Below, one piece after another: positions 1,712 to 29,371 of a stretch of DNA of 64,000 nt. Numbering within the stretch: the stretch's first letter is position 1; every line of letters starts with the position of its first letter. The notes beneath the pieces were generated by a model that was not told the origin of the DNA, did not search any database, and saw only the letters and a program-made list of their open reading frames with translations. Source of the DNA: an uncultured Chloroflexia bacterium (lineage in GTDB: Bacteria > Chloroflexota > Limnocylindria > Limnocylindrales > CSP1-4); assembly GCA_963788235.1 (NCBI GenBank), contig CAWBFV010000004.1, forward strand, positions 406,336 to 470,335, in the 5' to 3' direction. The position numbers and the translations under genes were made by a program.

Positions 1712-3069
1712 CGGCCCCGGCCACGCGGCCACGGCCCGCGCGGCGGGCCATCGACGAGCTGTCCCTGCCGGTCGACGAGGCAATCCTCGAGCGGCTGATC
1801 GCCAGCTCTCCGGATTGGCTCGCCGCCGATCGTCGCGAGGCGTTCGAGCGCTGGACGACGTTGCCGGCCGAATCCAACCTCCTGTACACGTCCTACATCG
1901 ACCTGCGGGCGGCCGCGCTCGAAGACGCCACGTTCGATCTGGTCGCCGACGGTGCCACTGCGTCGGACGCCCTCCCATTGCCCCCGGACGCCGACGCGTT
2001 GATCGAGGTCGGTGAGGGCCGACTCATCGGGGTTGCGCTGTCCGACGCCGCACGAACCGCCGGCGTTCGGCTGCGGACGCTGTCCGATGATCTCGCGACC
2101 GTCCGCGACGATCTCCTTCGCGAGCACGCCCTGCCGGCCGATGACAAGTTCGCCCAGCTGACGCGCGCCATGTGGAGCCAGGGTGTCGTGCTCGACGTGC
2201 CGGCCGGCGTCACGCTCGCCCAGCCGGTCGTCATCCGGTGGGCATCGGGCGCCCCCGATCGTGCCCTGGTCACGCGGACGCTGGTCCGCCTCGGCGATGG
2301 CGCCAGCGCCTCCGTCGTCGAAGAGCTCGTGCCCTCGTCGGAGGACGACAGCACCGGGCAAGCGTTCTTTGCCGGCACGATGGAGGTCACGCTCGGAGCC
2401 GGGGCGGCGCTGCGGGTGGCGAGCCTGCAGGAGCTGCCCGGAAACGTCGTCACGATCCAGCATCGTTCCGCGCTGATCGGCGAGGCGGCCAAGCTCGAGT
2501 GGGCGCTCGCCCAGCTTGGCGGCAGGCTCCTTCGCAGCCGCGTGGACAATCGGCTCGTGGGCGATCGCAGCTCGGTCCGCCAGGTCGAGATCGTCTTCGG
2601 CGCCGACGAGCAGCTGTTCGACCTCACCTCGTACACGACCCACATCGGTCGGGACACGACCGGCGACCTGCTGTCGAAGGCCGCGCTGCTCGAGCGATCG
2701 AGGTCCTACATGAAGGGCCTCATCACGATCGAGAAGTCGGCCCACGGCACCGACAGCTTCCTCGGCGAGTTCGGGATGAACCTGTCGAAGGCGACCCGGT
2801 CCGTCGCGATCCCGTCGCTCGAGATCGACCAGCCCGACTGCCGGCGGGCGATGCACTCGAGCTCCGTCGGCCCGGTCGACGAGACGCAGCTGTTCTACCT
2901 CGAGTCGCGCGGCATCCCGCCGGACGAGGCCCGCAAGTTCGTCGTCCTCGGGTTCCTCGAGCCGGTCGTGGCGCGCGTCCCGCTGGCGTCGGCGCAGGAC
3001 CGCCTTCGCGAGCTCCTCGAGGCCCGCTGGGCCGCCGGCACCGACGGCGTCACGAGCGCCGCTGCCTGA
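1708..3069 (+). CDS. sufD: Fe-S cluster assembly protein SufD
   Basis: 453-aa ORF with a TTG start overlapping the sufB stop. The C-terminal SufBD-fold region (...HSSSVGPVDETQLFYLESRGIPPDEARKFVVLGFL...) is typical of SufD. Confidence 0.9.
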   Translation: MTAPATRPRPARRAIDELSLPVDEAILERLIASSPDWLAADRREAFERWTTLPAESNLLYTSYIDLRAAALEDATFDLVADGATASDALPLPPDADALIEVGEGRLIGVALSDAARTAGVRLRTLSDDLATVRDDLLREHALPADDKFAQLTRAMWSQGVVLDVPAGVTLAQPVVIRWASGAPDRALVTRTLVRLGDGASASVVEELVPSSEDDSTGQAFFAGTMEVTLGAGAALRVASLQELPGNVVTIQHRSALIGEAAKLEWALAQLGGRLLRSRVDNRLVGDRSSVRQVEIVFGADEQLFDLTSYTTHIGRDTTGDLLSKAALLERSRSYMKGLITIEKSAHGTDSFLGEFGMNLSKATRSVAIPSLEIDQPDCRRAMHSSSVGPVDETQLFYLESRGIPPDEARKFVVLGFLEPVVARVPLASAQDRLRELLEARWAAGTDGVTSAAA

Positions 3070-3118
3070 TGCCTCCACAACCTCCCTCGCGACGGCCCCG
3101 GCGCGGCGGGGCAGAGCG

Positions 3119-3457
3119 ATGAGACGGATCGATCTCCTCGGCACCGACGAGATCGAGGACGGCGAGATGAAGATGGCCTGGGTCGACGGCACCGACCAGG
3201 TGCTGGTCATCAACCAGGGTGGCGAGTACACCGCCGTCCAGGGCGTCTGCTCGCACGAGTACTTCGAGCTCGACAAGGGCTTCCTGACCAACGGCACGCT
3301 GACGTGCGCGCTCCACCTGTCCCGCTTCGACCTCTCGAACGGCGAGCCGCTCGACCCGCCCGCCGAGGAGCCGCTGGCCGTCTACCCGGTCGTGATCGAG
3401 GACGGTCGCGTGCTGATCGAGGTGCCGGACGGACCGCTCGAGATCAGCGAGTCGTGA
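3119..3457 (+). CDS. Rieske (2Fe-2S) ferredoxin-like protein
   Basis: 112 aa carrying CSHEY...17 aa...CALH, i.e. the Rieske CxH...CxxH ligand pattern. It sits after sufD, as in many actinobacterial suf operons. Confidence 0.85.
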   Translation: MRRIDLLGTDEIEDGEMKMAWVDGTDQVLVINQGGEYTAVQGVCSHEYFELDKGFLTNGTLTCALHLSRFDLSNGEPLDPPAEEPLAVYPVVIEDGRVLIEVPDGPLEISES

Positions 3458-3842
3458 CCTCCGCGGCCACGACCGCCGCAGCCAGCCGGTCGTCGCCGGT
3501 CACGCTCACCGCGAGGTGGTCGATGCCCGACGCGGCGGCCAGCTCCGCGGCCCGACCGTGCAACACGACCGCCAGGTGACCCGACTCGTCGCAGGTCAAT
3601 TCGATGGATCGGAAGTCGAGCCCTTCGTCCGCGGCCGGCAGCACCTTGAGCGTCGCCTCCTTGACTGCGAAGCGCTGGGCGAGTCGACGAGCGTCCGTCC
3701 GTCCACGGGTCTGGCTGGCCGCGATCTCGCCCGCGGTGTAGACCCGCTCGACGTACCGCGACCCCTGCTCGGCGATGCTCTGGGCGACCGACGCGACCGG
3801 GACGTGGTCAAGACCGAAGCGCAGATTGATCAGTTTTGACAT
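3444..3842 (-). CDS. acpS: holo-[acyl-carrier-protein] synthase (AcpS-type 4'-phosphopantetheinyl transferase)
   Basis: The internal ATG at 3842 of ORF 3444..4235 gives 132 aa: MSKLINLRFGLDHV...RFAVKEATLKVL...FRSIELTCDESGHLAVVLHGRAAELAAASGIDHLAVSVTGDD. This is collinear with AcpS. It is divergent from the carrier-protein gene. Confidence 0.85.
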   Translation of the reverse strand: MSKLINLRFGLDHVPVASVAQSIAEQGSRYVERVYTAGEIAASQTRGRTDARRLAQRFAVKEATLKVLPAADEGLDFRSIELTCDESGHLAVVLHGRAAELAAASGIDHLAVSVTGDDRLAAAVVAAEVTTR

Positions 3843-4043
3843 GGTGTTCACATCCGGATACTTGTAGGGTGGTCTGGACGTGTCAAGGTCGGTTGAGCGG
3901 GTGCAGCGGCGCACCAAAAGGGCGCCGGATAGTCCCCCTCGACCTGGTACGTATGGCACGGTAGTGGGGCACCTGCCGTAATCTTTCCGGGGACATGACC
4001 GAGCGCCTCGAGCGCCGAAAATCAAGGGGATAGGGGGAAGTCC

Positions 4044-4286
4044 GTGGTCGAGCGCGTTCGACAGATCATCCGTGAGCACGGCCGGTTGCCGTCCGACCTC
4101 AATTCGCTCGACGACGAGGCGGACCTGTACCAGGCCGGCATGACGTCCCACGCGAGCGTGAACCTGATGCTCGCGCTGGAGGCGGCATTCGATGTCGAGT
4201 TCCCCGACGCGATGCTCAAGCGCAGCGTCTTCCAAAGCGTTCGATCGATCTCCGACGCGCTCGAGTCCCTCGGAGCGGCCGCGTGA
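4044..4286 (+). CDS. acyl/aminoacyl carrier protein (phosphopantetheine-binding)
   Basis: 80 aa with a GTG start after a GGGGGAAG Shine-Dalgarno. Carrier-protein helix II region LYQAGMTSHASVNLMLALE, with the Ser in the position of the DSL serine. Confidence 0.85.
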   Translation: MVERVRQIIREHGRLPSDLNSLDDEADLYQAGMTSHASVNLMLALEAAFDVEFPDAMLKRSVFQSVRSISDALESLGAAA

Positions 4287-5458
4287 TGGCCGTCGCCATC
4301 GACCGCGATCAGGCCTTCCTCGACGCCGTCCGGCGGATCGCCGACGAGGTCGCGGCGCCGAACGCCGACGTGGTCGACCGTGAAGCCCAGTTCCCGACCG
4401 CCACCATCGATGCGCTCAAGACAGAGGGTGCGCTGTCCGCCTTCGTCCCCACCGAATTCGGTGGCGGCGGCCTGCGGTTCGAGACCATCGCCGCGGCGTC
4501 GTTCGAGCTCGGTCGCCGGTGCGGTGCCAGCGCCATGGTCTTCGCGATGCACCAGATCCAGGTCGCGACGATCGTTCGCCACACGGACGGCGCTCCGTGG
4601 TTCGAGGCGTATCTGCGGGATCTCTCGAGCGAGCAGCGACTGATCGCGTCGGTCACCTCCGAGATCGGGACCGGCGGCGACCTCGGTCGCTCGATCGCGG
4701 CGGTCACCCCGGCTGCCGACGGCCGCGCGACGTTCGAGAAGCAGGCCCCGACCGTGTCCTACGGCGCGTACGCGGATGACCTGCTCACGACGCTGCGGCG
4801 CGACCCCGACGCCGAGCCCGGCGACCAGGTGCTGGCGCTCACGCGTCGGGACCAGACCGTCCTCGAACAGGTCGGCACGTGGGATCCGCTCGGCATGCGC
4901 GGGACGTGCTCTCCGGGCTACACCGTCCGGGCCGAATTCCCGACCGACCAGATCCTCCCGACGCCGTTCTCCGCGATCGCGCCGGTGTCGATGGTGCCGG
5001 TCACCCACATCCTGTGGTCGCACCTCTGGCTGGGCATCGCGACCGACGCGTTCGATCGAGCCCGTGCGTTCGTTCGGGCGACCGCCAAGGGTCGGCCCGA
5101 GGCCGCGCAGCCGATGGCGCTCCGCCTGTCGCACCTCATGAGCGAGCTCGCGCTGCTCCGCGCCGAGGTCGGATCGGGGCTCCGCGACTTCACGGACCTC
5201 GCCGACACGGATCGGGAGCGGCTGACGACGCTGGCGATGATCCTGCGGTTCAACAACCTCAAGCTCGCCTCCTCGGAGCAGGCGCCGCGGATCTGCCACG
5301 GGGCGCTCGGCGTGAACGGCATCGTCGGGTTCAAGAACGACACGCCGTTCAGCGTGGGTCGCCACCTGCGCGACACGATGTCCGCGTCGCTGATGATCGC
5401 GAATGAGCGTATCCACCAGACGAACGCCAGCCTGCTACTGATCGCCAAGGACGTCTGA
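4283..5458 (+). CDS. acyl-CoA dehydrogenase-family flavoprotein (probably acting on a carrier-protein-bound substrate)
   Basis: 391 aa with ACAD-like N-, middle and C-terminal regions. The start (GTG 4283 or ATG 4286) overlaps the carrier-protein stop. The C-terminal ...RDTMSASLMIANERIHQ... aligns with the ACAD ...RDAKIYQIYEGTxxIQ... segment but has no Glu at the canonical catalytic position. Confidence 0.85.
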   Translation: MMAVAIDRDQAFLDAVRRIADEVAAPNADVVDREAQFPTATIDALKTEGALSAFVPTEFGGGGLRFETIAAASFELGRRCGASAMVFAMHQIQVATIVRHTDGAPWFEAYLRDLSSEQRLIASVTSEIGTGGDLGRSIAAVTPAADGRATFEKQAPTVSYGAYADDLLTTLRRDPDAEPGDQVLALTRRDQTVLEQVGTWDPLGMRGTCSPGYTVRAEFPTDQILPTPFSAIAPVSMVPVTHILWSHLWLGIATDAFDRARAFVRATAKGRPEAAQPMALRLSHLMSELALLRAEVGSGLRDFTDLADTDRERLTTLAMILRFNNLKLASSEQAPRICHGALGVNGIVGFKNDTPFSVGRHLRDTMSASLMIANERIHQTNASLLLIAKDV

Positions 5459-5460
5459 CC

Positions 5461-6393
5461 GTGGCGACCTTCCGGCCTGGGACGGCCGACCAGACGGCCT
5501 TCCTCGAGGCGCTCATCGAGCGCGGCCTGCTGATCCCGAGCGGGGTGCCGGGCGTCTACGGACGAGGTGCCGCGTTCGAGCAGGTGCGCGTCGGCGTCGA
5601 TCGGGCGATCGATCGCGCCGCGGCGCCCGATGCCGCCGAGGTGCTGCGGTTTCCGCCGCTGCTGCCGCGCTACCAGCTCGAGGCCCTGGGCTACCTCAAG
5701 AACTTCCCGCACCTCGCGGGCACGATCTTCGGGTTCGACGGGAGCGAGGCCGAGGCCAACGAGCAGTTCGACCTGGCGTCGCGCCACGAGGACTGGAGCG
5801 GGTACCAGCACATGAGCGACCTGGTGCTGCTGCCGGCCGCGTGCTACCCGGTCTACCCGGCGATCGCCGCGCGCGGGCCGCTGGCCGCTGGCGGCATCAC
5901 GATCGACGCCGGCGGCGCCTACGTGTTCCGGCAGGAGCCGTCCGGCGATCCCGCCCGGCTGCAGATGTTCCACCAGCGCGAGATCGTGCGGCTCGGTGAG
6001 CCGGACACCGTCGTCGCGTGGCGGGACTCCTGGCGCGACCGCGCGGTCGAGATCCTGAGCGGGCTTGGGCTCAGCCCGGTCGCCGACGTGGCCTCGGATC
6101 CGTTCTTCGGGCGGCAGGGCCGGATGCTCGCAGCCAGCCAGCGCGAGCAGGCGCTCAAGTTCGAGGTGCTCGTCCACATCGCCGGGCCGGAGCCCACGGC
6201 GGTCGCCTCGTTCAACTATCACCACGACCACTTCACGTCGACCTACGGCGTCACGCTGGCCGATGGGGGCGTCGCGCACACCGCCTGCCTCGGGTTCGGT
6301 CTCGAACGCATCACGCTCGCCCTGTTCTGCACGCATGGCCTCGACTCGAACGCGTGGCCCGATGACGTGCGCTCCGTGGTGGGGCTCGCGTGA
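5461..6393 (+). CDS. amino acid--[carrier protein] ligase (truncated class II / atypical SerRS-like aaRS homologue)
   Basis: 310 aa with no tRNA-binding arm. Class II motif 2-like GGAYVFRQE and motif 3-like CLGFGLERITLALF, plus the PAACYPVYP region. It matches the aa:CP ligase family described from Bradyrhizobium and Agrobacterium. It lies next to a carrier protein. Confidence 0.85.
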   Translation: MATFRPGTADQTAFLEALIERGLLIPSGVPGVYGRGAAFEQVRVGVDRAIDRAAAPDAAEVLRFPPLLPRYQLEALGYLKNFPHLAGTIFGFDGSEAEANEQFDLASRHEDWSGYQHMSDLVLLPAACYPVYPAIAARGPLAAGGITIDAGGAYVFRQEPSGDPARLQMFHQREIVRLGEPDTVVAWRDSWRDRAVEILSGLGLSPVADVASDPFFGRQGRMLAASQREQALKFEVLVHIAGPEPTAVASFNYHHDHFTSTYGVTLADGGVAHTACLGFGLERITLALFCTHGLDSNAWPDDVRSVVGLA

Positions 6394-7364
6394 GCCTCTC
6401 GACCGCGCCGATGGCCAGCCTGTTCGGCCTCGACCCGGCGACCTACCGGCCCCACGACCTGCATGTCGCCGAGGACCGCGTCTACCTCGAGACGAACTGC
6501 TACATGGACGTGATCATCGAGCTCCTCCATGCCCGCGGGGACGAACCCCTGGCGGCGATGGGCTCGACGGTGCGACTCGACTTCGAAGGCGACCAGTGGA
6601 CGTTCTTCAAGCCCGATCCAGCCGACCTCGAGCGCCTCTACGGGATCGACATCCACGAGATGCAGCCCTGGCGCTCGATCCCGACGCAGATCGCCGAGCT
6701 GCTCGAGGCCGGTCGCACGCTGACGGTCGAGCTGGACGCCTGGCTGCTGCCCGACACGGCGTCGACGAGCTACCGCACGGAGCACGTGAAGACCACGGTG
6801 ATCCCCGAGGCGATCGACCTCGAAGGGGAGCGGCTGCACTACTTCCACAACGGCTCGCTGTACGAGCTCAGCGGCGACGACTACCGCGGGATCTTCCGGC
6901 TGGAGGTCGCGGACCCGGCGCTGCTGCCGCCGTACACCGAGCTCGTGCGCTTCGACGCCGGTCCGCGCCTCGCCGGCGCCGAGCTGCGCGGTGCGTCGCT
7001 CGACGCCCTGCGCCACCACCTCGCCCATGCGCCGGCCACCGACCCGTTCGCCCGCTTCGGCGAGCGGCTGGGGGCCGATCTCCCCGGGCTCCTCGACGGC
7101 GACGCGGCGACGTACCACGCCTACGCGTTCGCCACCGTCCGAATGGCCGGGGCGGGTTTCGAGTTGCTGGGATCGCACGTCGACTGGCTGCTCGGTGCCG
7201 CGGGCGCACCGGCGCACGAGGCGCTCGGCCGCATCGTGGACGGCGCGAAGGTCCTCGGGTTCCGTCTGGCTCGGCAGCGACCGTTCGATCCCGAGCCGAT
7301 CGTCCGCGACATGTCGACCGCCTGGGCCGATGCCATGGCCGCGCTGCACCGCGCCGTCGACTGA
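6390..7364 (+). CDS. DUF1839-like protein of unknown function
   Basis: 324 aa with a GTGA overlap onto the ligase stop. From memory the sequence resembles the DUF1839 family that accompanies aa:CP ligases. N-terminal motif VYLETNCYMDVIIELLH. Confidence 0.7.
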   Translation: MSLSTAPMASLFGLDPATYRPHDLHVAEDRVYLETNCYMDVIIELLHARGDEPLAAMGSTVRLDFEGDQWTFFKPDPADLERLYGIDIHEMQPWRSIPTQIAELLEAGRTLTVELDAWLLPDTASTSYRTEHVKTTVIPEAIDLEGERLHYFHNGSLYELSGDDYRGIFRLEVADPALLPPYTELVRFDAGPRLAGAELRGASLDALRHHLAHAPATDPFARFGERLGADLPGLLDGDAATYHAYAFATVRMAGAGFELLGSHVDWLLGAAGAPAHEALGRIVDGAKVLGFRLARQRPFDPEPIVRDMSTAWADAMAALHRAVD

Positions 7365-7368
7365 GCGC

Positions 7369-9917
7369 ATGACTGCGTCGGCCGTTCCAATGCCACGGCG
7401 CCACATGGGCCTCGACGTGCGCTCGATCGACCGAGGGTGGGAGGTCGCGTCGGCGCTGGCGGCCCCCACGAGTGCGGGCGTTCCGGCGGATCTCGAGTGG
7501 ATCCCCGCGTCGGTCCCCGGCACGGTCGCGGGAGCGTTCCGGGATGCCGGTCGCACGGTGCCCGACGATCTCGACGACCGCGATTGGTGGTTCCGCACGC
7601 GCTTCGAGGCGCCGCCGGCCGAGACCGGCGAGGAGATCGTCCTGCGCTTCGGCGGCATCGCGACGCTCGCCGAGATCCTGCTCGACGGGGAGCGCATCGC
7701 GACCAGCGAATCGATGTTCGCGCCGCTCGACGTCGACGTCACCGATCGCCTGGGTGGTTCGCACGAGCTCGTCATCCGGTGCCTCGCCCTTGCCCCACGA
7801 CTCGCCGAACCGCGCAAGCCGCGTGCCCGCTGGCGCACCGCAGTCGTGGCCGACGGCAACCTGCGCTGGTTCCGCACGACGCTGCTCGGGCGGGCACCCG
7901 GGTTCGCGCCCGGCCCGCCGGTCGTCGGGCCCTTCCGACCGGTCACCCTCGAGCGACGGAGCGGCATCGTCGTCGAGGACCTGCGCGTCCGGGCCCGACT
8001 CGCCGGTGAGGACGGCCGGCTCACGGTCAGTGCGCGCCTCCGCGCGCTCGATGGACGGGCGCCCGAGACGGCCTCGGTCGAGCTCGACGGACCGAACGGA
8101 GCCCACACGACCACGCTCACGATCCAGTGAGGCCGACGGCGCGATCACCGTCCAGGGCGAGCTGATCGTCCCGCGGGTGGCCACGTGGTGGCCGCACACC
8201 CACGGCGAGCCGAACCTGCATTCCGTGCGGTTGTCGATCGGGAGTGGCGACGCCGCGACGTCCGTCGATGGCGGGCGCGTCGGCTTCCGGGCGCTGACCG
8301 CCGGACCGGGCCCGGATCACGACATCGAGCGCGACGGGCTCGCGATCCACGTCGGCGGCGTGCCGGTCTTCGTCCGCGGCGCGGTCTGGACCCCGATCGA
8401 TCCGGTCGGGCTCGCGACATCGAGCACGGACCTGCGGTCGTCGCTGGAGCTGGTGCGCGACGCCGGCATGAACATGCTCCGCATCCCCGGCACCGGCCTC
8501 TACGAGACGGCCGAGTTCCACGATCTGTGCGACGAGCTGGGGATCCTCGTCTGGCAGGACCTGCTGTTCGCGAACCTCGATTACCCGTTCGCCGACGACG
8601 CGTTCCGATCGCTCGTCGATCGTGAGGTCGCCGAGGTCCTCGGCGGCACTCGCCTCGCGGCCGAGCACCGCCGTCATCTGCGGCAACAGCGAAGTCGAGC
8701 AGCAGGTCGCGATGCTGGGCCTCGATCCCGCGCTCGGGCGCGAACCGTTCTACCGCGAGGGGTTGGCCGCCGCAGCGAACGACGCCGATCTCGACGCGGT
8801 GCTGGTCCCGTCCGCCCCGTTCGGCGGCGATCTCCCGTTCCGCCCCGATCGTGGCGTGGCGAACTACTACGGGGTCGGCGGCTATCGACGGCCGCTGTCG
8901 GACGCACGAACCGCGGGTGTCCGCTTCGCGGCCGAGTGCCTCGCGTTCTCGAACATCCCCGATGGGCCGACCGCGGCGCTTGACGATCCCGCGTGGAAGG
9001 CCGGTGTGCCCCGCGATCGTGGCGCGGACTGGGACTTCGAGGACGTCCGCGACCACTATCTCGAGCTCCTCTACGGCGTCGACCCCGCCGCCCTCCGAGG
9101 CGACGACGCCCCGCGCTACCTGGCGATCTCGCGGGCGGTCAGCGGCGAGGTCATGGCCGAGGTGTTCGGTGAGTGGCGCCGCGCCGGATCGCCGAGCGCC
9201 GGCGGGCTCGTGCTGTGGTGGCGCGACGTCGTGCCCGGTGCGGGTTGGGGCCTGGTCGATCGGGATGGCACGCCCAAGACCGCCTATCACCAGTTGCGAC
9301 GTGCCCTCGCGCCGGTCGCGATCTGGACGACCGACGAGGGGCTCGGCGGCATCGCGATGCACGTCGCGAATGACCGCCCGGAGCGCCTCGTGGCGCGGCT
9401 GCGCGTCGCCCTGTACCGCGGCCTCGAGACCCTGGTCGGGGCAGGGGAGCAGCTGCTCGAGGTCGCGCCGCACGGCGCGACCGACCTCGACGTGGAGGCC
9501 GTGATCGGCCATTTCGTCGATGCCTCGTGGGCGTATCGGTTCGGACCGCCCGCACAGGACCTGATCGTGGTGACGCTGGAGGGGCTCGCCGGAGATCCGG
9601 CACGACCGATCAGCCAGGCATTCCGCTTCCCCGTCGGCCGCCCGTCGGCGGCCGAGACGGCAGCGTCGCTGGGTCTGGACGCGGCCGTCCTCGAACAGCG
9701 CGCGGACGGGACGACACTCGAGATCCGGACGCGCCGGCTTGCCCATGGCGTCCGGTTGGTGGCGCCCGGGTTCACGCCCGAGGACGACGCCTTCTCGGTC
9801 GAGCCGGGCCACGCCCGGTTGATCGACCTCCGCCCGACCGCATCGGGAACGCCGTTCCGAGGCGCCACCCTGACCGCCGTCAACCTCGACGGCGCGATCG
9901 AGATCGACGCGCGATGA
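7369..9917 (+). pseudogene. glycoside hydrolase family 2 (beta-mannosidase-like) protein, readable only across two frameshifts
   Basis: Three collinear pieces lie in three frames. Piece 1 runs 7369/7405-8130 (WEVA...VPGTVAGAF...DWWFRTRF...LRFGGIATLAEILLDG). Piece 2 runs about 8125-8650 (ATWWPHTHGEPNLH...MLRIPGTGLYE...VWQDLLFANLDYPF). Piece 3 runs about 8640-9917 (VICGNSEVEQ...RFAAECLAFSNIPD). Together they give about 850 aa with both catalytic Glu contexts present. The shifts are near 8125 and 8645. Confidence 0.8.
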
Positions 9918-11746
9918 CCGACCGACGCAGCCTGCCGCAGGCCCGCCCGATCTATCTCGGCACGGGCGTCGACGCGGCGTTCGCGATGTATCACGCGGTC
10001 GCCGACGGCGTCGTTCCGGGCGTCGCCGTGCTGATCGCCCCACCGTGGGGCTGGGACGACGTCAGCTCCTATCGCACCCGACGGACATGGGCCGACGACC
10101 TGGCCGAGGCGGGTCACCCGACGCTCCGGATCGACCTTCCTGGCACCGGCGACAGCGGCGGGACCGCGTCCGATCCGGATCGCATCAAGGCAGCGACCGA
10201 CGCGATCGCGGCCGGCGTCACGTGGCTCCGCGCGACCTCCGGCTCCGAACGGGTCGCAGTGCTCGGTCTCGGCTTCGGCGGGATCGTCGCCGCATCGTCG
10301 CTCGCGTCTGGCGCATCGATCGACGACCTCGTCCTCTGGGCCGTGCCCGCCCGCGGCCGCGGGCTGGTCCGGCAGCTTCGGGCGTTCGCGGGCCTCCAGG
10401 GCTCGCGCTACAGCCTGAGCGGTGAGCCCGAGCCCAGCGTGCTGCCGGACGGCTGGCTCGAGGTCAACGGCTTCGTGCTCTCGGCCGAGACGATCACCGC
10501 GCTCGAGGCGATCGAGCTCACCGCGCTGCCGGCGCACGGCCTCGGGCGCGTGCTGCTGCTCGACCAGGACGGGATCGCCGTCGATCCGAAGATCGTCGAG
10601 CACTTCACCGAGGCAGGTGCCGAGGTCACGGTCCGGCCCGGTCCCGGCTGGGGCGCGATGACGTTCCACCCCGAGCGCCCGTCGGTGCCGACGGAGGTGC
10701 TGGCGACGGTCCGTGGCTGGCTCGCCGACGCACCAGCACAGGTCACGGCGCTGCGGCCGGTGGCTGCCCTGCCCGACGCCGGTCCCGACCTGGACCAGAC
10801 GGTCGACGGCGTCGTCGTCCGCGAGACACCGATCGTGATCGACGGGCCGTCCGGCCAGCTGTTCGGGGTGCTGACCCGACCGGCCAACGGCCCGAGCGCG
10901 GCGCTCAGCGGCGTCTATCTGAACGCCGGCGCCGTTCGGCGGATCGGGCCGAACCGGATCTGGGTCGACACCGCCCGCCAGTGGGCGGCACGCGGCGTCG
11001 CGACGTTGCGCATCGACCTCGAGGGGATCGGTGACTCGGACGGCGACGAGGAACGCTACCGCGACGTCGCCCAGTTCTACGTGAACGACGACGTGGCGGT
11101 GCAGATCCGCGGCGCGATCGATGCGCTGGTGAACCGCGGCCACGGCTCACAGATCGTGCTGGCCGGCCTGTGCGCCGGCGGGTTCTGGGCGTTCCGCGGG
11201 GCGGGTCTCGACGATCGGGTGCGCGCCGCCTACCTGCTGAACCCGGGCGCCCTCGACTGGTACGCGGACCTCGTCGAGGTCCGTCGCGCGGCCCGCCTGC
11301 AGCGGCTGCGGCACTGGGCGTGGTGGCGACGGATCCTCTCCGGTGGCGTGCCGATGCGGAGCATGCGCGAGGTCGCCGGGGCGGTCGCCCGCCGCGTCCG
11401 TCGCACGATCTTCGGCCTGCCGCGGCGCGTCGTTCACCGGCGTTCGGCGGTGGGCGATGCCGGCGCGTCCTCCTCGGCGATCCTCGATCGGCTGTCCGCG
11501 TCGGGGACGACCGTGGTGATGGCGTTCTCCACCGACGAGCCGCTCTACCTCGAACTGGATCGCAACGGGTTCCTGGCCAAGGCCCACCGCTGGCCGACGC
11601 TGCGCCTCGAGCGCCTGCCCGGTCGCGACCACACCCTCCGCCCCGTCAGCGCCCAGCGAGCAGCCCGCGCGCTGCTCGATCGTGAGATCGACCGTGAGCT
11701 CGGCCGCCAGGTCGCGCGCATCACCCAACCAGCGAGGTCTGCCTGA
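9914..11746 (+). CDS. tandem (two-domain) alpha/beta-hydrolase-fold protein
   Basis: The ATG at 9914 overlaps the GH2 stop (ATGA), giving 610 aa. Two homologous halves: HPTLRIDLPGTGDSGG...VAVLGLGFGG and VATLRIDLEGIGDSDG...IVLAGLCAGG. Confidence 0.7.
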   Translation: MTDRRSLPQARPIYLGTGVDAAFAMYHAVADGVVPGVAVLIAPPWGWDDVSSYRTRRTWADDLAEAGHPTLRIDLPGTGDSGGTASDPDRIKAATDAIAAGVTWLRATSGSERVAVLGLGFGGIVAASSLASGASIDDLVLWAVPARGRGLVRQLRAFAGLQGSRYSLSGEPEPSVLPDGWLEVNGFVLSAETITALEAIELTALPAHGLGRVLLLDQDGIAVDPKIVEHFTEAGAEVTVRPGPGWGAMTFHPERPSVPTEVLATVRGWLADAPAQVTALRPVAALPDAGPDLDQTVDGVVVRETPIVIDGPSGQLFGVLTRPANGPSAALSGVYLNAGAVRRIGPNRIWVDTARQWAARGVATLRIDLEGIGDSDGDEERYRDVAQFYVNDDVAVQIRGAIDALVNRGHGSQIVLAGLCAGGFWAFRGAGLDDRVRAAYLLNPGALDWYADLVEVRRAARLQRLRHWAWWRRILSGGVPMRSMREVAGAVARRVRRTIFGLPRRVVHRRSAVGDAGASSSAILDRLSASGTTVVMAFSTDEPLYLELDRNGFLAKAHRWPTLRLERLPGRDHTLRPVSAQRAARALLDREIDRELGRQVARITQPARSA

Positions 11747-12342
11747 TGGTCCTGCCCGAGCCGATCCGGCGAACCGGTGACGATCCGGACATCGATCGGG
11801 AGCTGTTCCGCCGCGCGTTCCGGCGCCATGCCGCGACCGTCACGGTCGTCACGTATCGGGACGCCACGGGGCAGCCGCGGGGCATGACGGCGACCTCGGT
11901 CACCGCGCTGTCGGCCGATCCGCCCTCCCTCCTCGTGTGCATCGACCGGGCGACCAGGACCCACGAGGAGGTCATGCACGAGCGGCGGTTCGGCGTCGAC
12001 CTGCTCTCGGTGCACCAGCGCAAGATCAGCGTCCACTGCGCTCGACCGGGTGCCGACAAGCGCCTCCACGACGCGTGGCTGGCGCCCGATGCGTCGCCCG
12101 GCGCCCCGCCGCGCCTGGCTCGCGCGGTCGCCCACCTCGAGTGCACGATCGAGTCGGCCCTGGACGCGTTCACGCACACCGTGGTCGTCGGACGGATCCG
12201 CTCGATCTGGCTCAATCCGCTCGATCCGACGCCGCTGCTGTACCACGAGGGCGACTACGGTCGGCTCGGTGACCGCACGCTCGTCGACGCCCGGTTCGTG
12301 ACGCCGCTCGACCTCTACGATCCGCGCGACGACGAGGGCTGA
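11746..12342 (+). CDS. flavin reductase-like (FMN-binding split-barrel) protein
   Basis: 198 aa whose start overlaps the preceding stop by 1 nt (TGATG). FRRAFRRHAATVTVVTY...GMTATSVTALSADPPSLLVCI is typical of NAD(P)H-flavin reductase domains. Confidence 0.85.
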   Translation: MVLPEPIRRTGDDPDIDRELFRRAFRRHAATVTVVTYRDATGQPRGMTATSVTALSADPPSLLVCIDRATRTHEEVMHERRFGVDLLSVHQRKISVHCARPGADKRLHDAWLAPDASPGAPPRLARAVAHLECTIESALDAFTHTVVVGRIRSIWLNPLDPTPLLYHEGDYGRLGDRTLVDARFVTPLDLYDPRDDEG

Positions 12343-12349
12343 GCGCGGC

Positions 12350-14940
12350 TCACGGCTGCAGGGTCAGCGTCGCGACGGTGGCCTTCGCGATCGCGTCCCT
12401 GGTGAACGGCAACGGCAGCGTTTCGCCGGTCCGCCACGGCTCGATCTGGTCACGGTAGTGCGCGTCGAACGGGTTGCCGGCCTGGCCCGTCGTGATGACG
12501 ATGCGGGCGCCGTCGAGGTCGGTCATGTCGATCGTCAAGCGGTATGACGGCAGGTTGGTGACGCTGAACAGCGTGTCGATGCCGGCGACCGGGGCCGTCG
12601 GGTCGTCCGGGTCCGGGTACGCCCGCCTGAACTGGTAGTAGGTGTTGTCGACGGCGCCGGCCGCGCCGCCGACCGCCACGGGACCGGCGTTGAAGTACGA
12701 CTCCAGCGGGGCGATGCCGCTGGCGGTGCCGATCGTCGCCTCCCGGAACGTCGCGCTGTGCAGGCGTCCCCACGTCCAGCCGTCCGGCTCGCCGAGCGCG
12801 GCACGCAGCTCGGCGCCGGCCTGGTCCATGGCTCGGGCGATGATCTCGGGCGCGGTCTCGCGAACGTCCGGTGTCGAGACGTCGTCCCAGAGATCCGCCC
12901 CGGGTTCCTGGAGCAGGTTCGTCAACGCGACCCAGCTCGAGGGGCTCCCGACGTAATCCCGGGCCAGTCCGAGCAGGTCGTCGTCGAAGATCCCGCGCAG
13001 GACGCGATACTCCCAGGCCATGTAGGCAGCGCAGCCGAGACTGTCGGTGCCACACGCTCCCTCCCAGTCTGCGATCCGCGCGGAGATCAGTTCGCCGTCC
13101 GCCGTCGCCGGCTTGGCGTCGCCGAGCATCAGCACGATGTCGCCGGCGCGCGGGATCACGGTGTCGTTCTGGATCGCGCCCATCTCGGCCTGCGTCAGCC
13201 CGTCCTGGGCGCGCACGTTGATCTGGTCGATGATCCGCTCCGCGCGATACCCGGGATCGAAGTCGTTGCCGATGAACCGCGGGTCGCCCGGATCGAGCGG
13301 GCTGTTGTTGGCGCTCACGATCCAGCCGTCGACCGGGTCGAAGGCGGTGGGCAGCTGGTCGAACGGGATGCGCCCGGTCCATTCGCCGGTGCCGTCGGAG
13401 CCGGACACCGGGCGCAGGCCCCGATCCGCGGGATCGGAGCGGATGGGGATGTACCCGGACAGCTGGTAGCCGATGTGACCGTCGACGTCGGCGTACACGA
13501 AGTTCTGGGCCGGCGCGACGTAGCCCTCGAGCGCGGCACGGAACGACGCGAAGTCGGTCGCGGTGTTCACTCGCAGGAACGCCTCGACGCGTCCGGTCGG
13601 GACCCACGGCAGGGTTCGTGGCCGTCCAGCGCAGGGCCATCAGGGGCGCGTTGGCCAGTCGACTGTCGACGTCGTTGAGGATCGGGCCGTGGACGGTCTC
13701 GCGGACGGTCAGGTCGACCGCGTCGCCGCCCGACACGAGGATCCCCTCCACGCGCGTCGTGAACGGTAGTGACGTCCCGTCCGGGCCGAGGTAGTGCGTC
13801 GGATCGGCCGGATCGACCGTCTCGATGACGAGGTCCTGGACGTCGGGTTCGACGTTCGTCACGCCCCACGCGATCCGGGCGTTGTGTCCGAGCACGACGC
13901 CCGGCACGCCGCCGAACGAGACGCCGACCTCGTCGTACGGGCAGCTCTCAGTGACCTCGCGGCAATGCAGGCCGTTGATGTACCAGACCGACGGCATCGA
14001 GATCCCGAGGTGTGGATCGTTGGCCAGCAGCGCCCCGCCACTCGTCGACAGGCTCGGGGCGACCACCCAGTCGTTCGAGCCGATGCCGTGGTCGGAGGCG
14101 AGCGCGCCGTCCCCGGTCGAATCGAAGCCGGCGAGGGCGAGGGCACGACCGCCGAGCCCGGCAACGCTCCGCCAGGCCGCCTCCTGGGTCGCGGCTGAGC
14201 GCGGGCCGGGCCGCCGTCCTCGCGCGAGGGTCGCCGCCGTCGACCACGTCAGCCGCCGGTGGCTCCTCGGCATCCGGTGCGGGCACGATCACCGGCCCGA
14301 ACTCGCGGGTCGGGAAGAGCGAGTCGGTCAGCGCCGGGTCGACCAGCCGCTGATCCGCGAAGAACCGGAAGAGCTCGGCGTCCATGTTCCCGCCGAGGTT
14401 CCAGGCCTGGAGCTTCTCGAAGGCCAGCGTGTCGAGCACCGACCACGGTTCGGGCTTGTCGCCGGTAACGATGAACGCCATGCCGAGGTTGTTGCGGTTG
14501 GCGTCGAGCCAGGCATTCACGCCGGCCGCGTACGCCTCGAGCACCGATCGCGTCTCGCTGCTCAGCGCGGCGAGGTCGCGTTCGGCGGCCTGCCGCCAGC
14601 CCAATGTCCGGATGAACCGGTCGGTGTCGAGGGAGCCCTTCCCGAACACCTCGGCGAGCCGGCCGGAGGTGATCCGTCGCCACACCTCCATCTGCCACAT
14701 GCGCTCCTGGGCGTGCACGTACCCCTGCGCCATGAACAGGTCGCGTGGCGTCGAGGCCGTGATCTGGGCGATTCCGCTGGCGTCGCGTTCGATGGTGACC
14801 TGATCCTGCAGCCCGGGTACCTGCAGGGACCCGGTCGTCTGGGGGTGGGCTCGAAGCGTGATCCAGGCGATCCCACCGGCCCCGACCACGACCGCCAGCA
14901 GCACCACGAGCAGCAAGCCGACGATGACCTTCCTGATCAC
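12350..14940 (-). pseudogene. penicillin acylase / N-acyl-homoserine-lactone acylase family (Ntn hydrolase), readable only across two frameshifts
   Basis: N-terminal piece 14940 to about 14200: signal/TM MIRKVIVGLLLVVLLAVV, then ...MAQGYVHAQERMWQME. Middle piece about 14200-13620, with the Ntn nucleophile context GIGSNDWVVAPS...LANDPHL. C-terminal piece about 13620-12350. Collinear, about 860 aa in total. Confidence 0.8.
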
Positions 14941-24976: not shown

Positions 24977-25525
24977 ATGCCGGCCGTCCCCCCGATCCAA
25001 ACGGCGCGCTTCGAGCTCGTGTCGATGACGCTGCCGTTCATGGAGGCGCTCATCGCCCACGACATCGAGCGGGCGAGCGACGAGATCGGCGCCGTGGTCC
25101 CGGCGGACATGCCCGACGACCTCGAGCACTTCCTTGCGTACCGGACCGGGCAGATGCGCGACGACCCGGATGTCCAGCGATGGATCGGGCGGGCGATCGT
25201 GCTCGACGATGCCGATGGCCGCCGCGTGATCGGCTCGCTCGGGTTCCACGGCCCGCCCGACGAGGATGGCCGCGTCGAGGTCGGCTATCGCGTGGATCCG
25301 GCCCACCGACGCCAGGGCGTCGCCAGCGAGGTGGTCCGCGCCCTGTTCGATTGGGCGAATCGCGAGCACGGCATCACGCGCTTCCGCGCGGCCACCGCCC
25401 CGGGCAACGTCGCCTCGCAGGCCGTCCTCGCCCGGTTCGGATTCCGCCAGACGGGCATGCAGATGGACGAGATCGACGGGCCGGAGCTCGTGTTCGAGCT
25501 CGACGGATGGCACGCGACGGGCTGA
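24977..25525 (+). CDS. GNAT family N-acetyltransferase
   Basis: The internal ATG at 24977 gives 182 aa. VGYRVDPAHRRQGVASEVVRALFDWA is the acetyl-CoA-binding R/Q-x-x-G-x-A motif. Confidence 0.8.
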   Translation: MPAVPPIQTARFELVSMTLPFMEALIAHDIERASDEIGAVVPADMPDDLEHFLAYRTGQMRDDPDVQRWIGRAIVLDDADGRRVIGSLGFHGPPDEDGRVEVGYRVDPAHRRQGVASEVVRALFDWANREHGITRFRAATAPGNVASQAVLARFGFRQTGMQMDEIDGPELVFELDGWHATG

Positions 25526-25538
25526 TCCCGACGATGCC

Positions 25539-26703
25539 ATGATGGCCGGCATGCCGAGCCCTGACGACCAGGAGCCGTCGTTCGACACGCTCGCCGTCCA
25601 CGCGGGAGCCGAGCCCGACGAGCTGACGGGTGCGGTCGCGCCACCGATCTACCAGACCTCGACGTACCAGCAGGACTCGGTCGGCAATCCGCGGCGTGGC
25701 TACGAGTACGCGCGGTCGCAGAACCCGACCCGTGAGCGCCTCGAGCGGGCGATCGCGGCGCTCGAGGGTGGGCGGCACGGCATCGCGTTCGCGTCGGGCT
25801 CCGCGGCGACCGCGGCGATCGCCGAGCTGGCCGACCCGGGCGAGGAGGTGGTCGTCGGCGACGACGTCTACGGCGGCACGTATCGCTATCTCGAGCGGGT
25901 CCGCCGGCCTGGTGGCGGGGTCACCTCGACGTTCGTCGACCTCACGTCCGGCATGGACCAGCTGTGGGAGACGCTGTCCGAGCGCACGCGACTGGTCTGG
26001 TTCGAGACCCCGACGAACCCGCTGCTCAAGACCGTCGACATCGCCGCGGTGGCGGCGACCGTCGGGCGACGGGCCGACGAGGGTGGGCGGCGCCCGCTGA
26101 TCGTGGTCGACAACACGTTCGCCTCGCCCGCCATCCAGCGCCCGCTCACGCTCGGTGCCGACATCGTGTTCCACTCGGCCACGAAGTACCTGGCCGGGCA
26201 CTCCGACACGATCCTCGGGCTCGCCGTGACGTCGAGCGACGAGATCGGGGAGCGGCTGCGCTTCCTGCAGAACGCGATGGGCGCGGTGCCCGGGCCGCTG
26301 GATTGCTTCCTCGTGCTGCGCGGCCTGCGGACGCTCCATCTGCGCGTCGAACGGCACCAGGCCAACGCGACGGCGATCGCCGCGTTCCTCGAGGGCCGCG
26401 ACGACGTCGCGAGCGTCAGCTACCCGGGGTTCGGCGGCATGGTCTCGTTCCTGCCCGCGGCCCGCGAACGGAGCCACCGGCGCCGATCGGGCGAGGTCGA
26501 TCGCCGAGGGGATGCGACTCTTCACCCTCGCCGAATCGCTGGGCGGGGTCGAGTCCCTCGTCGAGGTGCCCGCGGCGATGACCCACCAGTCGGTGTCGGA
26601 GACGGCCCTGGAGGTCGACCCCGCGCTCGTCCGCCTGTCGGTGGGCATCGAGGGCATCGATGACCTCGTCGCCGACCTGCGCGGGGCGCTCGACCGCGCC
26701 TAG
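25539..26703 (+). pseudogene. cystathionine gamma-lyase/gamma-synthase family PLP enzyme, one frameshift
   Basis: MMAGMPSPDD...TLAVHAG...YEYARSQNPTRERLE...HSATKYLAGHSD (PLP Lys)...GFGGMVSF is in one frame. The conserved C-terminus RLFTLAESLGGVESLVEVPAAMTH...RLSVGIE is in the frame of ORF 26512..26703. The shift is near 26445-26465. Confidence 0.85.
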
Positions 26704-29160: not shown

Positions 29161-29247
29161 GATGGGTCTCCAGGTCGCGTGGCGGCGGCGCGGACCGGTC
29201 GTGACGGGATCAGGACCCTGGTCGATGAGAGGGGCTCCGGAGAGTCC

Positions 29248-29351
29248 CGTATCTCGCAGGCTTGCCTGCCCGGACTTGGCACCTTGCCGACCTCGCGTCG
29301 GTAGGTTGTCGTGGCTTCAACGGGCCGGTCCCTCAGCCATCTCTTGATACG
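29248..29351 (-). promoter_or_regulatory. SAM-I (S-box) riboswitch aptamer
   Basis: The minus strand reads CGUAUCAAGAGAUGGCUGAGGGACCGGCCCGUUGAAGCCACGACAACC...GGUCGGCAAGGUGCCAAGUCCGGGCAGGCAAGCCUGCGAGAUACG. All hallmark S-box blocks are present (AUCAAGAG, GAGGGAC-GGCCC-UGAA-CC, GCAACC-like, GGUGCCAA-UCC, GCAG...GAGAUA), and the P1 helix is closed by GUAUC/GAUAC. It lies 88 nt upstream of the ThrC-like start. Confidence 0.9.
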
Positions 29352-29371
29352 TGCTCTTCGGTTGTGCGCAG

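Follow-up and report, generated by a model that had tools for sequence, protein, structure and literature searches.

Gene content and organisation of the operon

The DNA analysed here is a 64-kb stretch from an uncultured Chloroflexia bacterium (contig CAWBFV010000004.1), called the window in what follows; its G+C content is approximately 70%, and all coordinates are window positions. Our subject is an operon at 4044-12342 on the + strand, built around an amino acid:[carrier protein] ligase (aa:CP ligase), together with a divergent gene for an AcpS-type 4'-phosphopantetheinyl transferase. Genes were called from the listing of open reading frames (ORFs) combined with the phase of third-position GC (GC3), and identities were assigned with Pfam and NCBIfam profiles.

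The first gene encodes a dedicated carrier protein (CP) of 80 aa (4044-4286), which matches NF005480 (PRK07081) and the Pfam PP-binding family. It is followed by a gene for a 391-aa flavoprotein with the acyl-CoA dehydrogenase (ACAD) fold (4283-5458; Pfam Acyl-CoA_dh_N), the start of which may instead be the ATG at 4286, and by the ligase gene (5461-6393; NF005479), the 310-aa product of which is a truncated class II aminoacyl-tRNA synthetase (aaRS) homologue of the methanogen-type seryl-tRNA synthetase (SerRS). The fourth gene encodes a DUF1839 protein of 324 aa (6390-7364; PF08893, E 1.8e-93), predicted to be a CP-dependent Cys transacylase or amide synthase. Downstream are a beta-mannosidase-type gene of glycoside hydrolase family 2 (GH2; 7369-9917), which is interrupted and reads in the pieces 7369-8130, ~8129-8647 and 8649-9917, a gene for a 610-aa tandem alpha/beta-hydrolase-fold protein (9914-11746; Pfam hydrolase families), and a gene for a 198-aa flavin reductase (11746-12342; PF01613, E 1.1e-34). 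AcpS (132 aa) is encoded on the - strand at 3444-3842, and the 201-bp intergenic region between it and the operon (3843-4043) is presumed, from its position only, to hold the promoters of both.

In operon order, the junctions are GTGA (4283), a 2-nt gap, GTGA (6390), a 4-nt gap, ATGA (9914) and TGATG (11744-11748), the start of the flavin reductase gene sharing 1 nt with the stop codon of the hydrolase gene. Judged from these coupled junctions, a single transcript is plausible. The intergenic region 3843-4043 contained no match to the sigma-70 consensus and no Rfam family at gathering score, and scans of the operon interior found no riboswitch, promoter or terminator, the terminator-like matches being as frequent as expected from shuffled sequence. 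A transmembrane segment or obvious signal peptide was found in none of the eight proteins from AcpS to the flavin reductase.

The operon and its coupled junctions were read directly as the initial annotation of this DNA had described them, and the protein identities that it had proposed were all confirmed by the Pfam and NCBIfam searches. Its count of seven ORFs held for six; the GH2 gene is split, its coding signal being spread over three frames by insertions at 8126 and 8648, and the operon as written consists of six intact ORFs and one interrupted gene.

The ligase, its carrier protein and AcpS

The ligase scored 396.3 bits against NF005479 (PRK07080), for which the equivalog cutoff is 357, and covered profile positions 17-316 of 318. 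The structures of Bll0957 (3mey and 4h2w) match ligase residues 6-309 with E of ~1e-78, Bll0957 residues 30-332 being aligned, and the similarity to methanogen-type SerRS is confined to the C-terminal catalytic part of the latter (~residues 310-505). Because the SerRS match covers the catalytic core alone, the ligase lacks a tRNA-binding arm. The absence of this arm had already been pointed out in the initial annotation, and it is borne out by the length of 310 aa, the presence of the catalytic core only and the full-length match to Bll0957 (E 5e-79).

Among 57 diverse members of the family, C128, R157, C276 and R283 are invariant and E159 is present in at least 90%. The conserved residues align with the PAACYP, FRREPS and HTGC motifs of Bll0957. 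R157 and R283 occupy the conserved positions of the motif 2 and motif 3 arginines, and we take the Cys/Glu/Cys positions (C128, E159 and C276) to be the zinc ligands described in the Bll0957 structure papers. Bll0957 and Bll6282 from Bradyrhizobium and Atu2573 from Agrobacterium were reportedly shown by Mocibob et al. in 2010 and 2013 to load Gly or Ala onto adjacent CPs. Aligned along its whole length with these three enzymes, the window ligase shows ~45-50% identity, shares their truncated class II core and keeps the Cys/Glu/Cys set. Judged by its sequence, it is a true member of the aa:CP ligase family, and from its homologues it is predicted to load a holo-CP rather than a tRNA. The alignment to Bll0957 allowed no inference of its amino-acid specificity.

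The presumed substrate of the ligase is encoded two genes upstream, and this CP scored 105.6 bits against NF005480 (cutoff 72). A natural CP-ligase fusion was also found (P0246), with the PP-binding domain at residues 18-71 and the ligase at 95-392. Apparent ligase-DUF1839 fusions were seen in several metagenomic proteins (among P0281, P0322, P0265, P0363 and P0361), some of which may be gene-call artefacts of the GTGA overlap. AcpS matched Pfam ACPS (E 1.1e-11) and TIGR00556 (56.4 bits, cutoff 45.35), and it reached none of the AcpS equivalog cutoffs, for example that of TIGR00516 (54.9 against 59.8).

Conservation of the cassette

The ligase family comprises 250 clusters at 50% identity (E <= 1e-30). 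For the survey of gene neighbourhoods, genomes were scanned with an alignment of 14 ligase sequences, and the best 80 of at least 589 species-genome matches were used. Loci were scored by tblastn with the window proteins, genes on the same strand being counted as colinear, and the denominators are the loci with enough flanking sequence. The CP was colinear with the ligase in 71/74 loci, the ACAD-like protein in 69/75 and DUF1839 in 70/77, while GH2 was colinear, directly after DUF1839, in 62 of 70. The order CP, ACAD-like protein, ligase, DUF1839 and GH2 is therefore kept in about 90% of the loci, which belong to Solirubrobacterales, Chloroflexia, Acidobacteriota and Alphaproteobacteria. The double hydrolase was colinear in 40/68 loci and present anywhere in the locus in 53/68. 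The initial annotation had placed GH2, the tandem hydrolase and the flavin reductase together with the ligase in one extended pathway; the association stood for GH2 and mostly for the hydrolase, but not for the flavin reductase, which was found in only 4/64 survey loci, plus the two related contigs L001 and L002. An AcpS homologue lies next to the cassette in 43/72 loci, and in 37/72 it is on the same strand, upstream of the CP gene. A dedicated, divergent AcpS is present in the window as had been described, but its divergence is specific to this clade; in other loci the AcpS gene either opens the operon, in the same orientation, or is missing.

The genomes nearest to the window locus are labelled as Chloroflexia and Solirubrobacterales metagenome-assembled genomes (MAGs), the host lineage being one of high-GC soil bacteria. 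On annotated replicons the compact cassette is found between unrelated flanks. Six genes are present on p2 of Azospirillum brasilense Sp7 and in Mycetohabitans, and a conjugative plasmid of Rhizobium leguminosarum carries the five-gene cassette. When the remaining ORFs of the 80 loci were clustered, a class I S-adenosylmethionine (SAM)-dependent methyltransferase was recovered in ~18/80, together with synteny restricted to particular lineages, for example with menaquinone genes; neither a transporter nor a glycosyltransferase emerged from this clustering as a conserved neighbour. The methyltransferase gene lies directly upstream of AcpS or after the double hydrolase (for example in L007, L018, L023, L024, L027, L033, L036, L042, L045, L047, L054, L065 and L078); the window has no copy of this gene, which may have an accessory role in tailoring.

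A more distant variant was found on a plasmid of Priestia megaterium (L085; NZ_CP085444.1, 103531-112078), where acpS and genes for an ACP, an ACAD and an aa:CP ligase are followed, in order, by genes for a DMT transporter, an ATP-grasp enzyme, a single alpha/beta-hydrolase, an alanine permease and an alanine racemase. DUF1839 and GH2 are both missing from this locus. The gene content hints that alanine, possibly D-alanine, is the substrate in Priestia, and a variant with an ATP-grasp amide ligase fits the logic of an activated small amino acid followed by an amide bond.

Based on these data, the window locus is almost certainly a standard aa:CP ligase cassette. The genes of such cassettes are routinely annotated by NCBI, and a survey of papain-like proteins published in 2023 lists proteobacterial DUF1839, in its supplement, as consistently beside GH2, aa-ACP ligase, ACAD and ACP (PMC10318531). 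The five-gene neighbourhood is therefore not new, as it was recorded in 2023. The Bll0957-type ligases share with the window an adjacent PRK07081 CP and, in alphaproteobacteria, the same CP-ACAD-ligase-DUF1839-GH2 neighbourhood; compared with these, the window copy adds the divergent AcpS, the fused double hydrolase and the flavin reductase.

DUF1839 resembles carrier protein-dependent transacylases

The AlphaFold2 model of DUF1839 (pLDDT 82, pTM 0.83) consists of an alpha/beta N-terminal domain (residues 1-190) and a helical C-terminal domain (196-323). In a Foldseek search of the PDB, the only significant full-length group of matches comprised CtaG, AziU2/U3 and CcbD (E 4e-6 to 5e-5, TM-score 0.53-0.61, probability 1.00), including structures of CcbD with its peptidyl carrier protein (PCP) and with methylthiolincosamide. 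Cys37, in the motif E-T-N-C-Y, is invariant in a 38-sequence alignment and present in at least 95% of a 68-sequence alignment, and it opens a helix (37-49) in the model. As candidates for the rest of a catalytic triad, the alignment shows H153, which is invariant, and H132 and D164, which are nearly so.

CtaG and CcbD are CP-dependent Cys transacylases. CcbD and LmbD of lincosamide biosynthesis transfer CP-tethered proline onto a catalytic Cys and then to the amine of a thiooctose, the lincosamide amino sugar, by a ping-pong mechanism (PMC12945683). The CtaG class, which includes BtrH and AsbE, combines a papain-like N-terminal domain with a helical C-terminal domain and accepts PCP-bound donors (PMC12865890). 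CcbD/LmbD, which act on the CP of CcbZ/LmbN, share the predicted fold of DUF1839 over ~350 columns (E 5e-6, TM-score 0.61) and have an N-terminal Cys; their identity to DUF1839, however, is only 13-18%, there is no common Pfam family, and the triad reported for DUF1839 is C(T/S)H instead of Cys-His-Glu. The lincosamide donor is also loaded by the adenylation domain of a nonribosomal peptide synthetase, whereas here the loader is an aaRS-derived ligase. CtaG (closthioamide) gave the best Foldseek match (E 4e-6) and, like BtrH (butirosin), AsbE (petrobactin) and MllDE, has the bipartite architecture of DUF1839, but without a detectable sequence relation. The loaders of the CtaG-class systems are ATP-grasp or adenylation enzymes, in contrast to the class II aaRS homologue found here, and the flavoprotein of the cassette has the ACAD fold and is not luciferase-like.

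From its model, DUF1839 is predicted to be a CcbD/CtaG-like CP-dependent transacylase or amide synthase. Several points count against this assignment. The TM-scores reach only 0.53-0.61, and in sequence searches DUF1839 matched neither BtrH_N nor any PDB chain, even at E 10, its Pfam assignment being PF08893 alone. The DUF1839 triad has been described as a permuted, non-canonical C(T/S)H (PMC10318531), and AziU2/U3 have the same fold and are described as carrying out functionally unrelated chemistry (PMC12865890). Because of the missing sequence relation, the precedent of AziU2/U3 and the permuted triad, we propose that DUF1839 acts in the manner of the CtaG/CcbD class, without counting it among the members.

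The ACAD-like flavoprotein and the flavin reductase

Only the N-terminal domain of the ACAD-like protein passed Pfam (57 bits), the models for the middle and C-terminal domains giving no match. Alignment of the family profile with short-chain ACADs (7p98), and of the protein pairwise with human short-chain ACAD (SCAD), is gapless through and after the R-D motif, and by extrapolation from there Ile372 falls at the position of the catalytic Glu, although 7p98 itself reads Y-T-G there. We take the motif carrying this Glu in SCAD to be Y-E-G. The family consensus at this site is M-I-A-N-D/E-R. Among the PDB neighbours of the protein, true ACADs are balanced evenly by oxygenases with the ACAD fold, namely KijD3, DnmZ and DszC, which the family profile matched with E of 1e-21 to 1e-16. 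Equivalog matches to SfnB, DszC and HsaA were not reached (61, 47 and 16 bits against cutoffs of 431, 850 and 450).

The best NCBIfam matches of the flavin reductase are HsaB, HpaC and StyB, which are reductases of two-component monooxygenases, all below cutoff. The gene is limited to the clade of the window, where it was found at the same position in L001, L002, L022, L025, L026 and L050. The oxygenases DszC, KijD3/DnmZ and SfnB have an ACAD fold without the catalytic Glu and a separate reductase, as in the window operon; unlike these, the ACAD-like protein is equally similar to genuine ACADs and most cassettes have no reductase. On balance, the observations indirectly favour an oxidase or oxygenase with the tethered aminoacyl group as its substrate, because the Glu position is occupied by Ile, KijD3, DnmZ and DszC are among the neighbours, and an HpaC/HsaB-like reductase is coupled to the operon in this clade.

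The tandem alpha/beta-hydrolase

The AlphaFold2 model of the tandem hydrolase (pLDDT 86.5) shows two ordinary alpha/beta-hydrolase domains. In the N-terminal half, the nucleophile position is occupied by Gly120, which is invariant in an alignment of 41 sequences; the C-terminal half has an invariant Cys420, in G-L-C-A-G, followed by Asp572-His573. The two hydrolase domains claimed in the initial annotation are thus present, but with Gly and Cys at the nucleophile positions neither half is an ordinary serine hydrolase. Cys420 is the single potential nucleophile and would suit thioester chemistry. The G-x-C-x-G motif had suggested a PhaC-like polymerase, an idea that was dropped when the fold search gave it no further support; Foldseek with the model returned generic esterases and lipases only, with no signal specific to polyhydroxyalkanoate synthases or thioesterases. 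The best NCBIfam matches were the exosortase-A-associated hydrolases 1 and 2 (TIGR03100 and TIGR03101; 82.7 bits against a cutoff of 168.45, and 76.7 bits against 202.75), the N-terminal half matching hydrolase 2 (TIGR03101) and the C-terminal half hydrolase 1 (TIGR03100). Those hydrolases are paired in the exopolysaccharide (EPS) loci of PEP-CTERM systems, whereas here the two domains are fused and the scores stay below the cutoffs; no exosortase context was seen in the surveyed loci.

The GH2 gene and its broken frame

The best PDB matches of the GH2 protein are beta-mannosidases (E 2e-45). In the alignment with BtMan2A, its GNSE motif is paired with GNNE and its AAEC motif with MSEF, and both Glu residues are present in at least 95% of 64 sequences. 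In BtMan2A these are presumably the acid/base and the nucleophile. With both catalytic glutamates kept, the GH2 family appears to be catalytically competent.

The frame of the gene in the window was compared with that in L001, a contig from a JGI metagenome that is 97% identical over window positions 1726-13246 and carries an intact GH2 gene of 836 aa (L001:8568-11078). Relative to L001, the window contains two single-base insertions, at 8126 and 8648. Breaks of the same kind were detected outside the operon by a frame-segmentation scan followed by Pfam. The penicillin amidase gene at 12350-14940 (-) runs over three frames, with PF01804 positions 1-166, 168-313 and 317-674 in separate pieces and breaks near 14187 and 13613, and the gene for a Cys/Met pyridoxal phosphate (PLP) enzyme at 25266-26703 (+) runs over two, with PF01053 positions 1-283 and 309-380 and a break near 26450-26500. 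With at least five frameshift-like breaks in the 64-kb window, some of them in unrelated genes, assembly indels are the likelier cause.

A genuine pseudogene in a decaying operon, leaving the pathway either without GH2 or inactive, has to be considered against this explanation. Over the 9.6 kb of the comparison with L001, the 2.5-kb GH2 gene holds both of the coding indels. Homopolymers are involved in neither, and the first insertion is a complex change by which a TGA arises. GH2 also has the highest nonsynonymous fraction, with 37 nonsynonymous and 64 synonymous codon differences from L001 compared with 14 and 120 for the other operon genes combined. However, when the 37 amino-acid differences were polarised with four outgroups, 14 were derived in the window, 12 were derived in L001 and 11 were ambiguous. 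Excess decay in the lineage of the window was therefore rejected, and since the derived changes are symmetric, GH2 is merely less constrained in both lineages. Dropping the two extra bases gives a full-length, stop-free protein of 836 aa, like breaks are present in the penicillin amidase (two) and PLP enzyme (one) genes, and GH2 is intact in all other relatives examined on short-read contigs. The breaks are most likely assembly indels, which we consider about four times likelier than pseudogenisation, and decay of the operon is accordingly rated as unlikely.

Split or mis-sized gene calls were also observed in loci from other long-contig MAGs of the MFD/ENA collections (L002, L022, L025, L026 and others). 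In L002, for example, the sufB gene is fragmented, and a protein of 1090 aa is called from the GH2/hydrolase region. This suggests that indel errors are common in such long-contig assemblies.

Flanking genes and other features of the window

The 3' end of AcpS overlaps by 14 nt (3444-3457) with that of a convergent Rieske ferredoxin gene (3119-3457), which lies downstream of sufBD. The order sufBD-Rieske-AcpS is kept in L001, L002, L022, L025 and L026. In L001 (L001:2080-2880) and in the contigs of P0005 and P0008, a gene of ~266 aa (246 aa in one) lies between sufB and sufD; the window lacks this gene, and its sufB and sufD genes directly overlap each other (1711-1726). The extra gene is not sufC, and its protein has no Pfam match. 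A SAM riboswitch (RF00162) was found at 29246-29353 (-), with 66.7 bits against a gathering score of 44.4; the window yielded no other Rfam family and no tRNA genes.

Discussion

The proteins of the cassette could be arranged in the following small, cytoplasmic, thiotemplated pathway. AcpS would prime the CP with phosphopantetheine, and the ligase would load a small amino acid onto the CP thiol, probably Gly or Ala at this locus if it behaves as its homologues do. The flavoprotein, fed by the reductase in this lineage, may then oxidise or oxygenate the aminoacyl thioester, with no classical alpha,beta-dehydrogenation. As its fold suggests, DUF1839 would take the acyl group on Cys37 and pass it to a primary amine in the ping-pong manner of CcbD/LmbD, BtrH and CtaG. 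Because of the GH2 neighbour and the precedents of CcbD and BtrH, the acceptor or the product could perhaps be a beta-glycoside or amino sugar that is handled by GH2, for example by trimming or unmasking. More speculatively, the tandem hydrolase might edit, release or further transfer the acyl group by means of Cys420.

The whole scheme, in which an oxidised Gly/Ala-type unit on the CP is transferred to the amine of a glycoside, is tentative, and we would give it somewhat less than an even chance. A broader proposal, of a compact, horizontally mobile pathway in which a glycyl or alanyl unit, oxidised or N-oxygenated, passes from an aaRS-loaded CP to the amine of an amino sugar or of another beta-glycoside and N-acylates it, is more doubtful still. 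The initial annotation had suggested a pathway that makes a modified amino acid or attaches it to a glycan or another acceptor. The likeness of DUF1839 to CcbD and CtaG supports the attachment, but neither the acceptor and the product nor the amino-acid specificity can be read from the sequence, and this is the first of several considerations that tell against the glycoside scheme. A hydrolytic GH2 in a biosynthetic operon that has no glycosyltransferase or exporter is left unexplained, GH2 evolves faster than the neighbouring operon genes, and the survey is skewed to relatives with at least 50% ligase identity. For the flavoprotein, the invariant Asn374 and Arg376 flank an acidic residue (375) that is a possible alternative base. 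The flavin reductase is missing in 60/64 informative loci, and the idea of a two-component oxygenase therefore rests on one clade and on the absent Glu.

The missing reductase is also the starting point for another explanation of the flavoprotein, namely that it is an ordinary FAD-bound dehydrogenase or oxidase that forms an imino- or 2-oxoacyl-CP from the aminoacyl-CP, with the reductase as a passenger. Its best single PDB matches are true ACADs and its C-terminal helix pattern is ACAD-like, which would fit such an enzyme. The Ile at the catalytic Glu position does not, and the overlap of the reductase start with the hydrolase stop, in a position that is the same in six related loci, is difficult to reconcile with a passenger. 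The reductases of ACAD-fold oxygenases are, in addition, often encoded elsewhere, as for DszC and KijD3. We therefore regard the dehydrogenase explanation as rather unlikely, although a serious contender. A different question is whether a glycoside is involved at all. DUF1839 might join CP-bound units with one another or with a simple amine, giving an oligopeptide or polyamine conjugate (cf. CtaG and AsbE), or it might merely release the acyl group, and GH2 would then have a separate task such as freeing a nutrient or signal by which the pathway is induced or fed. The acceptors of the CtaG class are diverse, comprising CP-bound beta-alanine, spermidine and an aminoglycoside (PMC12865890), and the faster evolution of GH2, the Priestia trio of CP, ACAD and ligase without DUF1839 or GH2, and the lack of a conserved glycosyltransferase nearby would all be in keeping with this. 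Set against it are the position of GH2, which comes directly after DUF1839 at 62 of the 70 loci, in different phyla and also on mobile replicons whose flanks are unrelated, the retention of its catalytic residues, and the fact that CcbD, one of the top three fold matches, acylates an amino sugar. For these reasons a pathway without a glycoside acceptor appears unlikely.

A further possibility is that the amino acid decorates an envelope glycopolymer such as lipopolysaccharide, EPS or a teichoic acid-like polymer, the cassette being an analogue of DltABCD or AlmEFG in which GH2 and the hydrolases carry out remodelling. In the Dlt and Alm systems a small CP is charged with D-Ala or Gly by a stand-alone ligase and serves as the donor for glycoconjugate modification, so that an aminoacyl-CP donor is their hallmark. 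The hydrolase halves have their best NCBIfam matches in exosortase-A-associated hydrolases 1 and 2 of EPS loci, and in Azospirillum and Mycetohabitans there are envelope genes close to the cassette. The 2023 survey guessed lipid or glycan processing for the DUF1839 neighbourhood, the glycan in question being that of the cell wall (PMC10318531). The Dlt and Alm ligases, however, belong to the ANL superfamily and their systems need membrane transferases, whereas the ligase here is aaRS-derived and all of the proteins are predicted to be soluble, none of the eight having a transmembrane segment or signal peptide. The neighbourhood contains no conserved membrane transferase, be it MBOAT, LPLAT or another, and no conserved exporter, the flanks differ wholly between taxa, and the TIGR03100 and TIGR03101 scores are far under their cutoffs. 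A role in envelope decoration is thus quite improbable. A parallel to the cassette is seen in the butirosin side-chain pathway, where a small ACP works together with an ATP-dependent loader, with a flavin monooxygenase and its reductase, and with BtrH as the enzyme of transfer to an aminoglycoside amine.

The biological role of aa:CP ligases was stated to be unknown in a 2022 review (PMC9437257), in agreement with the initial annotation, which had regarded the pathway that they feed as unassigned, and in the literature we found no assignment of a pathway or product for Bll0957/Atu2573-type ligases or for DUF1839. What is new here is the fold link of DUF1839, the Ile372 of the ACAD-like protein, the Gly120/Cys420 pair of the tandem hydrolase and the retention of the GH2 glutamates. 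The window copy of the cassette is one of hundreds and is unique only in its lineage-specific flavin reductase, which hints at oxygenase chemistry. Culturable carriers such as Azospirillum brasilense Sp7, Rhizobium leguminosarum and Agrobacterium would be better hosts for testing than the organism of the window.

The aa:CP ligases have stood since 2010 as a textbook case of an enzyme derived from an aaRS of which the reaction is known and the purpose is not. The ligase is almost never found alone; the unit in which it travels has five or six genes and occurs in at least five phyla or classes and also on plasmids. If DUF1839 has the CcbD/CtaG fold, as predicted, this long-standing question becomes a concrete reconstitution experiment. 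Should the reading of an N-acylated glycoside prove true, soil bacteria and plant-associated bacteria would turn out to make aminoacyl-glycoside metabolites of a class not yet described, and aa:CP ligases would gain the biological role that has been missing since 2010.

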